DNA of 64,000 nucleotides from IMG/VR virus record IMGVR_UViG_2754412344_000002, positions 1,647 to 65,646 of that record; one strand, given 5' to 3'. The position numbers and the translations under genes are program-made. Positions 5,043-25,297 of the stretch are shown here, in pieces. Numbering within the stretch: the first letter of the stretch is position 1; every line of letters starts with the position of its first letter. Under the pieces are notes generated by a model. It saw only the letters and a list, made by a program, of their open reading frames with translations, ran no database searches and was not told the DNA's origin. The stretch comes from a virus.

Positions 5043-5284
5043 GCCTCTACCTGTCTACGGTCGAACTGGCCGAGCTCGTCGGCTGCCGGCCGCGCAGCCT
5101 GGCGTGCATGAAACGTTGGTTGGAGCGGAACCACTGGCCGTATGCGGTGAACATCGCGGGTGTCCCGCTCGTCGCCCGGGCCTACTACGAGTCCCGCATG
5201 AACGGAACCGCACCGCCCGCCCCCGCGCGCCGGCCCCGCGCCGCCGCATCAGATGAACCGAATTTCGCCGCACTCACAGCATGA
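5039..5284 (+). CDS. DUF4224-like excisionase/recombination directionality factor
   Basis: 81 aa, YLS..ELAELVG HTH start, overlaps integrase start. Confidence 0.7.
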   Translation: MSLYLSTVELAELVGCRPRSLACMKRWLERNHWPYAVNIAGVPLVARAYYESRMNGTAPPAPARRPRAAASDEPNFAALTA

Positions 5285-6402
5285 TCGGACGACGCAAACG
5301 GCCGGACGGATTGCCCTTCCGGCTCTACGCCCACTACGGGAAGCACAAGGTCAGCTTCGGCTACAAGCTGCCGACTGGTCGCTGGGCGTTCCGCCTCTCG
5401 GCGCCCGCACGCCACAAGGATGCGATCGCGGAGATCCGCAAACAGGCGATCGAACGCGCGGAAGCGCTCAACGGAGACGCTGTCGAGCCGGGCACGTTCG
5501 AGGCACTCGCCGACGCATATTTCGACTGGCAAGAGGGTCTGCCGCATACCGACGAACGCCGGAAGGCGCAGATCACCCTCGACGAAAACCGAAACGAGCT
5601 GAAACGCCTCGTCGCCGTCTTCGGCAAGATGTCGCCGGCCGCCATCAAGCCGAAGCACGTCTACGGGTACCTCGACAAGCGCGCGCAGATGGGCGCGCCG
5701 GCGAAGGCGAACAAGGAAGTCGCCCTATTGTCCGCCATACTCGAATTCGGCCGGCGCCGCGGCGAGGTCGAAACGAACCCGTGCCGCGGCATTGAATACA
5801 ACCCGACGCGGCCGCGCCAACGCTATGTGCGGCAGGACGAAATCGATCTTGCGGTGGAAGTCGCGCGGTCGCGCCGGAGCGTCGGCGACCAGCACCCGAG
5901 TTCCGCGTACTTGATTCTCGCGCTTTGCGTGAAGGCAGCCTATCTGACCGTCAGCCGGCCGACCGAGATGCGGGAACTGCATCGTCAGAGTATCCGGCCC
6001 GAAGGCGTCGAGGTGCCGATCGGAAAGCGAAAGGCCGGCGAGCAGCAGCGCGTGAAACTCGTCCTGTGGTCACCGGAGTTGAAGGCGGTGATCGATGAAG
6101 CGCTGGCCCTGCAGCGCACGTCGAGCGTGCACGTGTTCGGGAACACGGCCGGCCAGGTGTACACGCGCAGCGGATGGAACACGAACTGGTCGCGGCTGAT
6201 GGGCTACTGCGAGAAGGAGGCGCAGGCGCGCGGCGTGCCGTTCGAGCGCTTCGCACTGCGCGACATGCGGCCGGCCGCCGTGACCGATCGCCAAGAGGAA
6301 GGCGACGATCGCATCATCGACGCGACCGGCCATGCAGACGAACGTATGGTGCGGAAGACATACGACCGACGCCGACAGAGGAAAGTGCGAGCGACGCGCT
6401 AA
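5281..6402 (+). CDS. int: Tyrosine recombinase (phage integrase)
   Basis: RPTEMR, LRDMR, TGH and terminal TYDRR catalytic-type motifs; adjacent to tRNA-His. Confidence 0.9.
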   Translation: MIGRRKRPDGLPFRLYAHYGKHKVSFGYKLPTGRWAFRLSAPARHKDAIAEIRKQAIERAEALNGDAVEPGTFEALADAYFDWQEGLPHTDERRKAQITLDENRNELKRLVAVFGKMSPAAIKPKHVYGYLDKRAQMGAPAKANKEVALLSAILEFGRRRGEVETNPCRGIEYNPTRPRQRYVRQDEIDLAVEVARSRRSVGDQHPSSAYLILALCVKAAYLTVSRPTEMRELHRQSIRPEGVEVPIGKRKAGEQQRVKLVLWSPELKAVIDEALALQRTSSVHVFGNTAGQVYTRSGWNTNWSRLMGYCEKEAQARGVPFERFALRDMRPAAVTDRQEEGDDRIIDATGHADERMVRKTYDRRRQRKVRATR

Positions 6403-7050: not shown

Positions 7051-7127
7051 TGGGGTGGCTGATGGGACTCGAACCCACGACAACAGGAATCACAATCCTG
7101 GACTCTACCAACTGAGCTACAGCCACC
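7051..7127 (-). tRNA. tRNA-His (GTG), host; att site of prophage 1
   Basis: GGTGGCTGTAGCTCAGTTGGTAGAGTCCAGGATTGTGATTCCTGTTGTCGTGGGTTCGAGTCCCATCAGCCACCCCA, 77 nt with G-1 and CCA. Confidence 0.97.
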
Positions 7128-7185: not shown

Positions 7186-8220
7186 TTATACGAAGACTTT
7201 TCCATCTTGCAAAGCATTTTTTTCAAAATTTTCGAGAGCGTCGTTCAGATGCGTACGCGCCTCGTCGAACACGGCCAGATCGCCGCGCGCGAGCTTCTTG
7301 TTGTCCGACAGCACGCGACGCCAGCCGCGCGCCCCCGCGACGCCGCGATACAGCCCGAGTGCGTGCCGGACGATCGCGCCGAGATACGTGCCGCGCTTCA
7401 GCTCCGCCGCGCAGTATTCGATCAGTTTCGCCTCGGCCTCTTCGCGCGTCGGCGCGGCGGCGGTCGCTCCATAGAAGCGCGCATCGACTTCGGCGAGCAC
7501 GTACGGGTTGTGATACGCCTCACGGCCGAGCATCACGCCGTCCACATGCTCGAGATGCTGCGCGACTTCATCCAGCGTCTTGATGCCGCCGTTGATCACG
7601 ATCTCCAGCGACGGGAAATCGCGCTTCAGCCGGTACGCATAGTCGTACTTGAGCGGCGGAATCTCACGATTCTCCTTCGGCGAAAGCCCCTTCAGGATCG
7701 CATTGCGCGCGTGCACGACGAACGTCTGGCAGCCCGCCTCGGCTACCGTGCCGACGAAGTCCCGCACGAACGCGTAGTCCTCGACCGCATCGACCCCGAT
7801 CCGATGCTTGACCGTGACCGGCACCGACACCGCATCGCGCATCGCCTTCACGCAATCGGCGACGAGCTGCGGCTCGTTCATCAGGCACGCGCCGAACGCA
7901 CCGCGCTGCACGCGTTCGGACGGACAGCCGCAATTCAGGTTGATCTCGTCATAGCCCCATTGCTCGCCGAGTTTCGCGGCGCGTGCGAGATCGTCCGGTT
8001 CGCTGCCGCCCAGCTGAAGCGCGATCGGCGATTCGTTCGGCGTGAACGCGAGATGTCGCTGGGCGTCGCCGAACAACAGCGCGCCCGTCGTGATCATTTC
8101 CGTATACAGCCACGTGTCGCGCGTCAGCGTGCGATGGAACGACCGGCAATGACGGTCGGTCCAGTCGAGCATGGGGGCTACAGCTACCTTGCGACCTTTG
8201 AATTTTCGAGAAACTTCCAT
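7186..8220 (-). CDS. dusA: tRNA-dihydrouridine(20/20a) synthase DusA with phage-supplied N-terminus
   Basis: APMLDWTDRHCR, NLNCGCPSERVQ, VTVKHRIG, VHARNAIL, GVMLGREAY motifs; first ~15 codons AT-rich. Confidence 0.95.
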   Translation of the reverse strand: MEVSRKFKGRKVAVAPMLDWTDRHCRSFHRTLTRDTWLYTEMITTGALLFGDAQRHLAFTPNESPIALQLGGSEPDDLARAAKLGEQWGYDEINLNCGCPSERVQRGAFGACLMNEPQLVADCVKAMRDAVSVPVTVKHRIGVDAVEDYAFVRDFVGTVAEAGCQTFVVHARNAILKGLSPKENREIPPLKYDYAYRLKRDFPSLEIVINGGIKTLDEVAQHLEHVDGVMLGREAYHNPYVLAEVDARFYGATAAAPTREEAEAKLIEYCAAELKRGTYLGAIVRHALGLYRGVAGARGWRRVLSDNKKLARGDLAVFDEARTHLNDALENFEKNALQDGKVFV

Positions 8221-21477: not shown

Positions 21478-22857
21478 TTACTGCTCTGCTTCGAGCGTCT
21501 GGATGAACTTGACAACCGCTTCGCTGAAGCCGTCAATCTTCGTCCACGATCCATACCCGACGCCATTTTGGTGCGAGGCGACATTTATCATGTAGCCCCG
21601 CGCTGTGGGGTTGCCCACGGGATCATAAGACTGCTCATCGGTGATAACGATCAGGCGGTCTGCCGGAATCGTGTTGGCCGCACGAACCGCAGCACCAAGA
21701 TAGGTTCCGCCGTGAGGTTGTGACAGAACGATTGCATCGATGAGGCCCATGCCATATCGCGGGGGGACTTCAACAATTTGGCCGGAGAATGTGAACACCC
21801 GTGTCTCCGGGCAAATTCCGCGAACCAGAACGGCCAATGCCGCCGCCGCATCCAGTCGACTGAGATCTGATTTCAACGAAAGTGGCGCGTCCATCGATCC
21901 AGATACGTCAACCAAGACGTTCGTGCGCCCACCCATCGGAGCGAAGGAGCGCATCGCCTCCATCATTGCCGCATCGATCATTGGTTCCCACTGCTTTACC
22001 GCTCGTGCTGCCGCGACAAATCGAAAAGGCAGCGCATTGGAACGCGGAGCACCTTCGGTCAAACGCTGCTTGACCAACTCCACGTTGACACCGGAATCGG
22101 CCATGTTCCGCAGATTTCGAAGGAGCGCCAGATAGCCGAGCTTGTTTTCGCCCAGCAGTCGCTCAAAAGTTTCGCGTTTTTCAGCGCCGCCCGAAAGAGC
22201 GACCTCCCAAGTATCCGGCGTATCCAATGTCCGATCTGCGATCTGTCGATACAGGCGTTCATCGCGAGACAATTTGGGCGTTGCGTTCAATCGCCGCTCT
22301 TCTGCCCGCTCCGCTTTCGTGTAGTGACGCTCCGAATCTTTCGGCCGCGCATGGCTCAAGAACAGCGCATCGCGAAGTTTTACAGTGGTCCCGCGATCAT
22401 ACTTCGCGAACTGATAAGCATCGAACTTGCGAAACGCTCCAGCCAACCCCAGCTTAACCTGCTTGCTCACGGGGCATTTCCCATCTTGCCAGTAGATCGC
22501 CAAGAACTCGGCGATTTCGTCTGCTCGTTGGATAACACGAGTAAGCGTCTTCCCGACGATAGCGCCAGTGTTTTTGCGTCGTGCCATTTCTCGGACAAGA
22601 AGCAGCGGCGCATGGCGGAGTTTCATGTCCTCACGCGCTTCGACTGCCAATTTTGCGACATCTTCAAGATCACATTGCGCCACAAGCGTTTTGATTCGCT
22701 CCGCAATGCTCTCCCCGCTCTCATAGAAATTGCTCTCCCACAAGAGGCAGGCCATAACCGTGCGACGTAGTTGCTGAATTGGCTTTACATGAAGCGACGC
22801 TGGCGCCCCTTCGTGCGTATAGACCTTCGGGGTAGATGCGTTCGAATTGATTTTCAC
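21478..22857 (-). CDS. rsr: Ro60-like RNA-binding protein (TROVE + vWA)
   Basis: THEGAPA, LRR..MACLLWE..FYESG, FDAYQFAKY, LDTPDTWE, LGYLALLRNLRNM, vWA MIDAS DVSGSM and VITDEQ; AAGGAG RBS, GTG start. Confidence 0.93.
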   Translation of the reverse strand: MKINSNASTPKVYTHEGAPASLHVKPIQQLRRTVMACLLWESNFYESGESIAERIKTLVAQCDLEDVAKLAVEAREDMKLRHAPLLLVREMARRKNTGAIVGKTLTRVIQRADEIAEFLAIYWQDGKCPVSKQVKLGLAGAFRKFDAYQFAKYDRGTTVKLRDALFLSHARPKDSERHYTKAERAEERRLNATPKLSRDERLYRQIADRTLDTPDTWEVALSGGAEKRETFERLLGENKLGYLALLRNLRNMADSGVNVELVKQRLTEGAPRSNALPFRFVAAARAVKQWEPMIDAAMMEAMRSFAPMGGRTNVLVDVSGSMDAPLSLKSDLSRLDAAAALAVLVRGICPETRVFTFSGQIVEVPPRYGMGLIDAIVLSQPHGGTYLGAAVRAANTIPADRLIVITDEQSYDPVGNPTARGYMINVASHQNGVGYGSWTKIDGFSEAVVKFIQTLEAEQ

Positions 22858-22869
22858 TACTTCTCCTTA

Positions 22870-22930
22870 GCGGGAACAAGCAGCAACGGGTAGATTTCAT
22901 AGCAAGAAGTAACCGTTACCTTCACCACGC
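22870..22930 (-). ncRNA. Y-RNA-like gene 1 (short, YrlB-like)
   Basis: GCGTGGTGAAGGTAACGGTTACTTC...CCGTTGCTGCTTGTTCCCGC; terminal stem shared with units 2 and 3; abuts rsr. Confidence 0.75.
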
Positions 22931-22945
22931 AAACTTAAATTCATG

Positions 22946-23067
22946 GGGCAACAAGCGAAGCGAGTACGTTTAGCGCTCTACCAACTGAGCTACGGCCTTT
23001 CAGCCGGCTGGACTCGAACCAGCGACCTCTCGATTAGCAGTCGAAGGAACTCGCTTCTACGGCACCC
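22946..23067 (-). ncRNA. yrlA: YrlA-like Y RNA with circularly permuted tRNA module
   Basis: Terminal stem GAAGCGAGT/ACTCGCTTC enclosing anticodon hairpin, AGGTC, T arm GCTGG-TTCGAGT-CCAGC, loop-closed acceptor CGGC-TGAAAG-GCCG and D arm GCTC-AGTTGGTA-GAGC. Confidence 0.88.
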
Positions 23068-23079
23068 AAACAAAATCCT

Positions 23080-23169
23080 GCGGGAACAGACCAGAGCGGA
23101 ACATGAGCGCGCAGATCGAAATCCCGCCTTCTCGCTCCCATAGCGAAGTAACCGCGCTGTACGCCACGC
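23080..23169 (-). ncRNA. Y-RNA-like gene 3
   Basis: GCGTGGCGTACAGCGCGGTTACTTC...CCGCTCTGGTCTGTTCCCGC; same end motifs as units 1 and 2. Confidence 0.75.
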
Positions 23170-23173
23170 AATC

Positions 23174-23908: not shown

Positions 23909-23950
23909 ATAATAGGCGTCCCTATCGGCTAGGTCAATAGGGATTTCGAT
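23909..23950 (-). promoter_or_regulatory. pL promoter with two operator sites
   Basis: -35 TTGACC (23932-23937), 17 bp, -10 TATTAT (23909-23914); ATAG-N6-CTAT at 23912-23925 and ATAG-N6-CGAT at 23937-23950. Confidence 0.75.
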
Positions 23951-23980: not shown

Positions 23981-24001
23981 AAAAACCCCGCATGTGCGGG
24001 G
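23981..24001 (-). terminator. Intrinsic terminator closing the cI transcript
   Basis: CCCCGC-ATGT-GCGGGG hairpin with A5 on plus (U5 on minus). Confidence 0.65.
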
Positions 24002-24024
24002 CTGTCGGAGACGAGAGGCGGGAA

Positions 24025-24290: not shown

Positions 24291-24794
24291 CTAGCCTTTC
24301 CAGTTACTGGCGCGCTCGATCGGCACCTCGTCCTGAGCTGGTTCGGTCGTTGCGATGATTGCCCCGATTGACGCAATAAGTATCCCCCGGCGCCGCCCCT
24401 GGATGCGGTCGATTCTTGCAAGTTCTTTGATAATCACCTGCATTTCTTCGGAAATACCATCCAGCGAAAGCATCTTATCACTTTCTTTCGACTGGTTTTC
24501 GGGGGCAGAAATTGGGGGTTTCTCTAACGTCAGATCGTAGTTTGATTGATCTTTGTCAACATCTGGCTCACCTTCCCCGCGCGCCAGCCATCGAGGATTC
24601 ACATTGAGCGCAGTCGCGAGATCCACGATACGCGCCGTCTCTCCCTCCCCGTTTTCAAGCGCCCATAGCGTCGGCTGCGACATGCCCGCCATCTTGGCTA
24701 GGGCTCGCTGTGAGAGGCGTTTGGGTTTGGCGAGCTTCTCGCGGGCGTAGCGCACCCGGCCGCCAACCGTCATCAAATCGTAGGGCTTATCCAT
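24291..24794 (-). CDS. cI: CI-like HTH repressor without S24 peptidase domain
   Basis: RVRYARE...LSQRALAKMAGMSQPTLWALENG...LATALNVNPRWLARGEG; 167 aa; divergent from cro. Confidence 0.85.
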   Translation of the reverse strand: MDKPYDLMTVGGRVRYAREKLAKPKRLSQRALAKMAGMSQPTLWALENGEGETARIVDLATALNVNPRWLARGEGEPDVDKDQSNYDLTLEKPPISAPENQSKESDKMLSLDGISEEMQVIIKELARIDRIQGRRRGILIASIGAIIATTEPAQDEVPIERASNWKG

Positions 24795-24860
24795 ATAGGA
24801 ATTCTTATCTATCTGCTGACCGGAATTCCTATTGACTTGCCCAATAGTCGTGACTATCAT
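24795..24860 (+). promoter_or_regulatory. OR operators and pR promoter
   Basis: ATAG-N6-CTAT-type sites at 24795-24808, 24819-24832, 24844-24857; -35 TTGACT (24832-24837), 17 bp, -10 TATCAT (24855-24860). Confidence 0.8.
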
Positions 24861-24866
24861 TTGGTC

Positions 24867-25079
24867 ATGGAAATCGATCTTCAAAGCTTGGTTCGCACCC
24901 TCGTCGAGGCCGGATGCTCTCAGCGTCAGATCGCTCGCCGAGTTGGATGCAGTCAGCCAACCATCTCGAACATCCTTAGCGGAAACATCGGTAAGGTTCG
25001 GCCCTCCTATACGGTCGTGACGGGCATCAAGGATATGGTTGCTGAGGTCCAAGCACGAAAGGATTCGGTCGGAGCTTGA
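24867..25079 (+). CDS. cro: Cro-like HTH protein
   Basis: SQRQIARRVGCSQPTISNILSG HTH; 70 aa. Confidence 0.85.
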   Translation: MEIDLQSLVRTLVEAGCSQRQIARRVGCSQPTISNILSGNIGKVRPSYTVVTGIKDMVAEVQARKDSVGA

Positions 25080-25297
25080 TGCTCCGGTCAAACGGTGGTC
25101 TCCGCACACGATCCCCCGACGTGTGACGGTTTGGGCGATGTTCGCATCGCTCTTTTTTACAGCAAGCTGGCTGGCGTAACGCGGGTCGGCAACGTGGTTC
25201 ATAAATAAGGCGTCCTTAGTGACGCCTCAATATTTGACCAAGATCAACCGGTGATTCAACTGATTAACCGATTGATTTTTCTAAAAAGGTGAAAGAA

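Follow-up and report, generated by a model that had tools for sequence, protein, structure and literature searches.

A phage-borne YrlA-class Y RNA, very probably a permuted tRNA mimic tethered by a Ro handle, with an anticodon-type stem-loop of variable triplet

The DNA analysed here, referred to as the window, is a 64,000-nucleotide (nt) stretch of the virus record IMGVR_UViG_2754412344_000002 in IMG/VR; coordinates without a locus number are window positions. Its minus strand carries three tandem Y RNAs, in the order Y-a, Y-b and Y-c, followed by rsr, the gene for a Ro60-like protein. We consider it very probable that the second of them, Y-b (22945-23067), is a phage YrlA-class Y RNA, the paired ends of which form a handle for the downstream Ro60-like protein and the upper domain of which is a near-complete, circularly permuted mimic of transfer RNA (tRNA). 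Judged by comparison with its relatives, the hairpin within this domain is a genuine anticodon-type stem-loop. Y-b is a new phage-borne member of a known RNA class, and its hairpin a known element that is re-read here as an anticodon arm with fast-changing anticodons. An earlier sequence-only reading had already described a YrlA-class permuted mimic with a sealed acceptor stem, and the tRNA elements it enumerated are all present on the minus strand, at the positions given in the following feature list (bp, base pairs).

22945-23067, minus strand: whole Y RNA, unit Y-b; our own covariance model R1 scores 138.8 bits over 22942-23071, Rfam YrlA 46.6 bits.
23062-23067, minus strand: 5' strand of the terminal Ro-type helix, GGG-U-GC with a bulged U, then the conserved CGUAG; pairs with 22945-22949.
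23049-23057, minus strand: 5' strand of the second stem, GAAGCGAGU; pairs with 22957-22965.
23044-23048, minus strand: 5' junction linker UCCUU, which with U23049 is the family motif UUAC-UU (YUAY of Chen 2014).
23041-23043, minus strand: nt 29-31 (CGA) of the anticodon stem, from the 5' segment, placed by covariation.
23034-23040, minus strand: 7-nt anticodon-type loop C32 U33 G34 C35 U36 A37 A38, with the anticodon GCU at 23036-23038.
23029-23033, minus strand: nt 39-43 (UCGAG) of the anticodon stem.
23024-23028, minus strand: class I variable loop A44 G45 G46 U47 C48 (AGGUC).
23007-23023, minus strand: T arm GCUGG-UUCGAGU-CCAGC, the helix of which is 99.7% paired in relatives.
22993-23006, minus strand: acceptor-like hairpin CGGC-UGAAAG-GCCG, 4 bp, closed, with no CCA.
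22975-22992, minus strand: U8 A9 (22991-22992), then the D arm GCUC-AGUUGGUA-GAGC with GG in its loop (22975-22990).
22972-22974, minus strand: G26 (22974), C27 (22973) and U28 (22972); C27-G43 and U28-A42 (partners G23029 and A23030) complete the anticodon stem.
22966-22971, minus strand: 3' junction linker AAACGU, unpaired in every model.
22957-22965, minus strand: 3' strand of the second stem, ACUCGCUUC, from folding and alignment.
22945-22949, minus strand: 3' strand of the terminal helix, GCCCC, with the conserved GCUUGUU (22950-22956) before it; Y-a and Y-c have the same end sequences.

Searches with the Ro protein in viral, metagenomic and genomic collections yielded 167 loci. Using R1, which was built from the window and four relatives, we found more than 100 full-length homologues beside rsr genes; full-length tRNA-like Y RNAs lie upstream of rsr in about 100 of about 160 loci, usually in arrays of two to eight. 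The match of Y-b to the Rfam YrlA model (RF02553; E-value 3.8e-9) stays under the 69-bit gathering threshold, which is a curated cut-off and not a biological feature. The assignment to YrlA as a permuted mimic with a sealed acceptor is borne out by this match, by the closed CGGC-UGAAAG-GCCG hairpin and by covariation in the family.

All helices of the Y RNA family covary. In the alignment A4, 94.7% of the cells are paired, compared with 79.5% in shuffled alignments, and none of 500 shuffles matches the observed values; changes on both sides occur in 25 of the 31 pairs, and slid registers drop to 35–55%. Two pairs of the terminal helix vary on both sides and three are invariant (99.6% of cells paired), while all nine pairs of the second stem show both-side changes among relatives. 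The acceptor-like helix also covaries, and in relatives it comprises 4–9 contiguous pairs, mostly 6–8. The Levitt pair 15:48 is GC in 92 of 115 cases and AU in 19, UA occupies positions 8-9 in 63 of the 73 relatives, and tRNA-invariant nucleotides are present in both the UUCGAGU T loop and the AGUUGGUA D loop. At the 5' junction linker the family consensus reads GGUUACUUC. Near the handle, the window has GCCGUAGAAG, the family G(G/C)(C/U)G(U/A)AG and the published motif GNCGAAN0-1G; the three are alike, although not identical.

A linear tRNA reading of Y-b was considered and rejected. The Rfam tRNA model (RF00005) gives 32.2 bits on the 5' two thirds of Y-b, spanning model positions 4-67 only and allowing the acceptor just 4 bp and the D stem 3 bp; ARAGORN called no tRNA at Y-b, and a well-formed D arm is found on the 3' side of the T arm.

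The hairpin as first read, UUCGA-CUGCUAA-UCGAG (23029-23045, minus strand), had been claimed as a separate, retained anticodon arm. Covariation of the stem and the conserved frame of the 7-nt loop confirm this, with a correction to its two outermost pairs. Pairs 29:41, 30:40 and 31:39 are Watson-Crick in 86–97% of relatives, with three to four pair types, and none of 1000 shuffles reaches these values. Positions 43 and 42, set against the invariant 5' UU, are Watson-Crick in only 19% and 36%, which is shuffle level, and show no both-side changes. In contrast, the second nucleotide after the D stem is Watson-Crick with position 43 in 94% of relatives, and the third with position 42 in 91%, using all four pair types; these values are reached by none of 2000 shuffles, and neighbouring registers are at chance. 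In A4, both-side changes were counted in 10 sequences for 27:43 and in 6 for 28:42. The first nucleotide after the D stem and the first of the variable loop covary as 26:44 does in tRNA (GA 43, AU 13, AA 7, AG 4).

The anticodon stem is therefore best described as putatively composite, the strand that follows the D arm contributing nucleotides 27-28 and the 5' strand contributing 29-31. In Y-b, G26 stands opposite A44, and the pairs C27-G43, U28-A42, C29-G41, G30-C40 and A31-U39 carry the loop CUGCUAA, so that the 5-bp stem, 7-nt loop, U33 and purine 37 by which a canonical tRNA anticodon arm is recognized are all found. Thermodynamic folding by itself does not set the RNA apart (minimum free energy z-score of −1.15), and it predicts a 5-bp hairpin built from the 5' strand, a prediction that covariation overrides for pairs 27-28. 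With 27-28 on the strand after the D arm, the chain is opened inside the anticodon stem, at 28/29, and the Ro handle is a side branch between these two positions; the sequence-only reading had put the break between the D and anticodon arms. Because an unbroken chain runs from the D arm through 26 to 27-28, as it does in genuine tRNA, the mimic is closer to tRNA than had been held. An interpretation of the hairpin as a variable arm was rejected, since the 5-nt class I variable loop AGGUC follows it and 26:44 and 27-28:42-43 are in tRNA register.

Units of this kind recur in cultured phages under other names. Xanthomonas phage 10KY502B has three units of the same architecture, the 5' part of one being annotated as tRNA-Thr by the depositors (L169:1792-1859). 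Caulobacter phage CcrColossus has eight consecutive R1-matching units upstream of its Ro gene (L170:755-1949), the longest array among the loci examined, with the 5' part of one unit annotated as tRNA-Gln (L170:1167-1234), and Brevundimonas phage Kikimora has four, with the 5' part of one annotated as tRNA-Ser (L172:1799-1873). These three annotations likely represent mis-annotated permuted mimics, and thus a recurring error in which phage genome records list Y RNA units as tRNA genes. They could also be taken at face value, as traces of a split-tRNA precursor: RNase P would open the acceptor loop, CCA would be added, and the two-piece tRNA would be charged and decode AGY codons. Many relatives indeed have acceptor stems of 7–8 bp, and the YrlA of Mycobacterium smegmatis, a YrlA-class mimic like Y-b, has a 7-bp acceptor which is opened by RNase P and to which CCA is added (PMC4201824; bioRxiv 10.1101/312249). 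We nevertheless regard a split tRNA as very improbable. The acceptor of Y-b has only 4 bp, with neither discriminator nor CCA, and by analogy with the mycobacterial RNA it is unlikely to be an RNase P substrate; GCU sits on a class I body without the long variable arm needed by bacterial SerRS; the handle juts from the anticodon stem, a site of contact between tRNA and ribosome; and the linear reading, at 32 bits and with its 3-bp D stem, is rejected by ARAGORN.

In order to describe the loop, its composition was taken from the 57 members with a clean 5/7/5 parse, and triplets were counted in 73 non-redundant relatives located beside phage or bacterial rsr. The frame of the loop is conserved (C32 in 79%, U33 and a purine at 37 in 96% each, A38 in 91%) and positions 34-36 are variable, with 23 different triplets across the 73 members: GCU in 17, GUU in 11, UGU in 8, UGG in 7, UCU in 4, and others. 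U36 is found in 67–72% of members, and the nucleotide at 37 depends on that at 36, U36 being accompanied by A37 in 48 of 49 cases and G36 by G37 in 12 of 15. The alignment of homologues that had been proposed as a check on the hairpin thus shows a conserved 7-nt frame and a varying anticodon. Bacterial tRNA-Ser belongs to class II. The commonest triplet, GCU, nonetheless stands on a class I body, so the loops were not simply inherited or passively copied from tRNA-Ser genes, and the earlier remark that this is not a normal bacterial tRNA-Ser holds.

In close pairs (scaffold difference ≤15%) anticodon sites show 0.47 differences per site and the scaffold 0.12, i.e. the anticodon changes approximately four times faster. 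The Y RNAs L043:1249-1383 and L081:1331-1465, from phages that are ∼90% identical, differ at 4 of 135 nt. Two of these form one compensatory acceptor pair and the other two are an adjacent change from U36 A37 to G36 G37, which turns GUU into GUG, an Asn-like into a His-like loop, with the 36/37 rule kept. A coordinated switch of this kind on a near-identical RNA is hard to explain by drift. Triplets also differ inside one array (GGU, GCA and CAU in L161). Selection on the loop itself is indicated by its frame (U33, R37, A38), by the 36/37 rule and by the strong preference for a few triplets.

When the remainder of the body was compared with the anticodon (Pro-like or Glu-like D arms), the relatives yielded striking single cases but no consistent rule, and nothing general is claimed from them; some units may mimic one isoacceptor entirely. 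One unit of the Xanthomonas phage (L169:1569-1702) has the loop AUCUCAA (CUC), the D arm GUCUAGUGGCUUAGGAC and a 4-nt variable loop; the latter two we take to be hallmarks of bacterial tRNA-Glu.

Comparison with published Y RNAs places the hairpin in a wider context. In many YrlAs a fourth stem-loop located upstream of the T arm has been described, named 'V' and equated with the variable arm, with a conserved YUAY starting the V loop (Chen 2014; PMC4201824). As YUAY corresponds to the UUAC (UUCC in the window) directly before the hairpin, V and the Y-b hairpin are the same element. In V-bearing YrlAs (P. fulva, R. etli; Chen 2014 Fig. 1C) the hairpin is located between YUAY and the T arm, as in Y-b; there it was published as a less-conserved variable arm, whereas the Y-b copy is phage-borne, part of an array and not next to rtcB. 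In Rhizobium phaseoli pRphaN841c, with the order rtcR-rsr-YrlA (two copies)-rtcB, the hairpin is missing from one YrlA (74.5 bits). The second copy (L173:3043-3177; 63.4 bits) has AGAU-CGUUA-AUCU, readable as the loop UCGUUAA, and the CC after its hairpin pairs with the GG after its D arm. A unit on a Rhodococcus plasmid (L174:1245-1369) has UUCGA-CUGUUAA-UCGAG and the same composite 27-28:42-43 pairs. The V stem-loop of these R. phaseoli and Rhodococcus YrlAs is almost certainly the same element as the Y-b hairpin, and the arm is therefore not special to the window phage. The sequence-only reading had set it apart from the YrlA standard; the hairpin is real, but many published YrlAs already possess a stem-loop at this place.

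The YrlA of Salmonella Typhimurium (RF02553; PDB 6CU1; PMC4201824; bioRxiv 10.1101/312249) resembles Y-b in adjoining rsr and in having a handle of 5' and 3' ends, permuted T and D arms, a closed acceptor, a Levitt pair and a strand after the D arm that pairs with the strand before the variable loop. However, its proximal anticodon stem continues into the Ro handle, whereas that of Y-b is closed after five pairs by the 7-nt loop and has the handle as a side branch. The authors state that Salmonella YrlA is without the anticodon loop, and they placed the conserved UA in the variable loop of most YrlA RNAs (Wang 2018; bioRxiv 10.1101/312249). Our reading would revise the published YrlA cloverleaf by turning what was drawn as a variable arm into the distal anticodon arm, with the Ro handle as a side branch. 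We found no published statement of the V hairpin in anticodon register, of its anticodon-loop rules or of its variable triplets, in a search that did not extend to the supplement of Chen 2014 and several reviews; the reading as an anticodon arm with hypervariable anticodons appears to be unpublished.

The conserved loop shape with its swapped anticodons suggests that the RNA is presented to an enzyme that reads tRNA anticodon loops. The question of what binds the tRNA-like domain of bacterial Y RNAs has stood since 2014. A bona fide anticodon arm in a large share of them, with variation confined to the triplet under natural loop rules and a switch between near-identical phages, leads to the prediction that the partner reads anticodon loops. 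We envisage that the Y RNA would be made early after induction or infection and that the Ro ring would hold and protect it through the handle. A tRNA body that cannot be charged, yet bears a real anticodon loop, would thereby be shown to a protein reading such loops. The likeliest partner would be a host tRNA-cleaving or tRNA-modifying defence effector, for which the Y RNA would serve as bait or as a competitive inhibitor; the range of effectors covered would be set by the window's three units and by the differing anticodons of relatives. Naming a tRNA-directed defence or toxin enzyme as this partner is a tentative assignment, the foremost of several possibilities but not in itself probable.

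Anticodon-loop-specific defence nucleases are well documented, and the PARIS effector AriB cleaves the tRNAs for Lys (UUU), Thr (UGU) and Asn (GUU) (PMC12409363); among the Y RNA triplets, GUU ranks second in frequency and UGU third. A decoy function is plausible and was suggested in print before: competitive inhibition of an anticodon nuclease has been proposed for the tRNA-like domain of Salmonella YrlA (Hughes 2020; PMC7790460). The tRNA variants with which phage T5 meets AriB (PMC11464382, PMC12409363) are likewise phage tRNA-shaped RNAs for which the identity of the anticodon (Lys, Thr, Asn) matters. They are, however, functional, chargeable tRNAs that replace the cleaved host tRNAs, whereas Y-b is unchargeable and tied to a Ro protein; should Y-b act against a nuclease, its part would be that of bait and not of a spare. 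Thermus phage phiLo (PMC12135203) has a Ro60 homologue with Yrl1 and Yrl2 just upstream, as in the window, and a counter-defence role was suggested for it; unlike Y-b, its Yrl RNAs are of stem-bulge-stem type without a tRNA-like domain, and the proposed partner is the host PNPase.

In its widest form the bait proposal would hold that the YrlA V arm is a tethered anticodon stem-loop, and that phages and bacterial RNA-repair operons carry arrays of Ro-bound, non-chargeable bait, the anticodons of which are swapped fast (as from GUU-A37 to GUG-G37) in step with the anticodon nucleases or tRNA-modifying toxins encountered. We consider so broad a statement doubtful. If true, it would amount to an RNA-based, anticodon-specific layer of counter-defence, parallel to the spare tRNAs of phages. 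Phage defences that target tRNA are currently coming to light at a fast pace.

Several points weigh against an anticodon arm displayed to a defence enzyme. Approximately half of the tRNA-like Y RNAs beside rsr are without a 7-nt loop. In a second permutation class the Ro handle lies in the D loop and the uninterrupted anticodon arm is capped by loops of 4–5 nt (GCAA, GCAG, UUAUU), which implies that an anticodon loop is not required for every function of Ro and Y RNA. For the 2-bp helix 27-28:42-43, the support for which comes from covariation, wobble pairing with the conserved 5' UU is a competitor. The enrichment of NNU anticodons with A37 A38 would fit a modification enzyme or another loop-binding protein equally well, and PNPase, the effector known for a bacterial Y RNA, does not count among the defence nucleases.

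The last of these points, together with the units and the D-loop-permuted class that have no 7-nt loop, would be expected if the tRNA-like domain were a generic tether, bringing to the Ro ring a decay or repair enzyme, be it PNPase or another exonuclease, a ligase or the CCA-adding enzyme. The elbow or body would then be what is recognized, and the anticodon loop would be ballast from tRNA-like ancestors with an irrelevant triplet. Consistent with this, it is the T and D arms that are best conserved in the family, and not the loop triplet; the Y RNAs of Deinococcus radiodurans tether Rsr to PNPase (PMC4201824), and the Ro60 of phiLo, with its Yrl RNAs, binds host PNPase (PMC12135203). The Deinococcus RNA Yrn1 shares with Y-b a T-like stem-loop and a potential 5-bp 'anticodon arm' modelled by Chen 2014; it differs in its 6-nt loop, in the orientation of its arms, in having neither a full D arm nor a variable loop, and in its effector PNPase, and the authors considered its evolution independent (PMC4201824). 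The selection seen in the loop frame, the 36/37 rule and the triplet skew, however, is not what ballast would show, and the switch from U36 A37 to G36 G37 is hard to attribute to drift. Moreover, mini Y RNAs retain the loop hairpin without a tRNA body. Among the short Y RNAs of the arrays, 23 of 54 have a hairpin with a 7-nt loop, usually on a 3–4-bp stem right after the conserved ACUUC, and several repeat loops of the tRNA-like units (CUGCUAA, CUUGUAA, CUUUUAA) which are natural anticodon loops. A generic tether is, on balance, unlikely in our view, although it deserves serious consideration.

A partner on the translation side would account for the same loop in a different way. The pattern C32 U33 N N U36 A37 A38 mimics ANN-decoding tRNAs, and the RNA might titrate or tether t6A37 synthesis, TrmD (G36 G37), Tgt (GUN) or an anticodon-reading synthetase, and so retune host translation. 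This loop is common to every tRNA that reads ANN codons, and its positions are t6A determinants. The prevalence of U36 A37 (67–72% of loops), the conservation of C32 and A38, and the presence of G37 in G36 loops, which is the TrmD pattern, all agree with such a role. Salmonella YrlA is in addition a proven substrate of DusA and TruB (PMC4201824). Mimicry of ANN tRNAs for any other purpose would nevertheless give the same loop, and with its acceptor sealed and lacking CCA, the RNA does not offer several of these enzymes a determinant on which they rely; translation-side bait seems to us distinctly improbable, and a loop-reading defence enzyme is retained as the tentative partner.

The neighbourhood of the Y RNAs contains the following features.

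21478-22857, minus strand: rsr, Ro60-like protein of 459 amino acids with TROVE and vWA domains (Pfam TROVE 1.1e-13; PHROG 850 RNA-binding protein 5e-44).
23909-23937, minus strand: promoter-like site TTGACC-17-TATTAT, from a consensus scan only.

By its domains, the rsr product is a Ro60/Rsr orthologue. The open reading frame (ORF) starts 88 nt 3' of Y-b on the same strand and is followed downstream by small ORFs and an ERF recombinase. The leader, the Y RNAs and rsr could all be transcribed from the promoter-like site; just ahead of it is a terminator-like hairpin (23984-24003, minus strand), which lies 3' of a repressor-like helix-turn-helix gene (24291-25202). A non-coding leader of ∼700 nt separates the promoter-like site from the Y RNAs. 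In gene order the region resembles a temperate phage's early-left operon, which would yield the Y RNAs and rsr first, the timing of expression being read from the layout. None of the RNA repair genes sought (RtcB, kinase, ligase) adjoins rsr in the window phage, where the neighbours are small ORFs without known function. The sequencing runs listed comprise one DNA run that holds the complete stretch and no RNA run.

The integrase gene (5281-6402, plus strand), tRNA-His (7051-7126, minus strand) and dus make up the left side of the provirus record. The dus gene is complete (7186-8220, minus strand; Pfam Dus 8e-85), adjoins tRNA-His and is near the integrase. The phage had been supposed to sit inside dusA, which could not be confirmed: dus is full-length, and neither att repeats nor a second dus fragment were found in the 66.9-kb record, for which reason integration into dusA is unproven. 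Any link between dus and D-loop modification of the Y RNA is treated as a coincidence.

The two sister units of Y-b and the members of the second permutation class are as follows.

23077-23173, minus strand: unit Y-a, with Ro-type ends, the hairpin UUCGC-UAUGGGA-GCGAG and a degenerate T arm, without acceptor or D arm (R1 36.9 bits).
22867-22934, minus strand: unit Y-c, a 68-nt mini Y RNA with a Ro-type stem and a 3-bp hairpin carrying the 7-nt loop UUGCUAU (GCU; R1 34.1 bits).
Second permutation class: L112:837-966, L133:783-923, L106:810-946, L131:1301-1431, L135:1306-1435 and L161:1005-1134.

Y-a looks like a decayed or trimmed tRNA-like unit; its loop is Pro-like, with A at position 33. Mini Y RNAs that consist of the handle and a hairpin, without a tRNA body, and have a 7-nt loop identical to a natural anticodon loop (CUGCUAA, CUUGUAA, CUUUUAA) were seen at L066:1273-1342, L064:1260-1329, L029:1205-1275, L084:1369-1443 and L051:1014-1088, and the loop of Y-c, UUGCUAU, recurs identically in L033:1410-1475.

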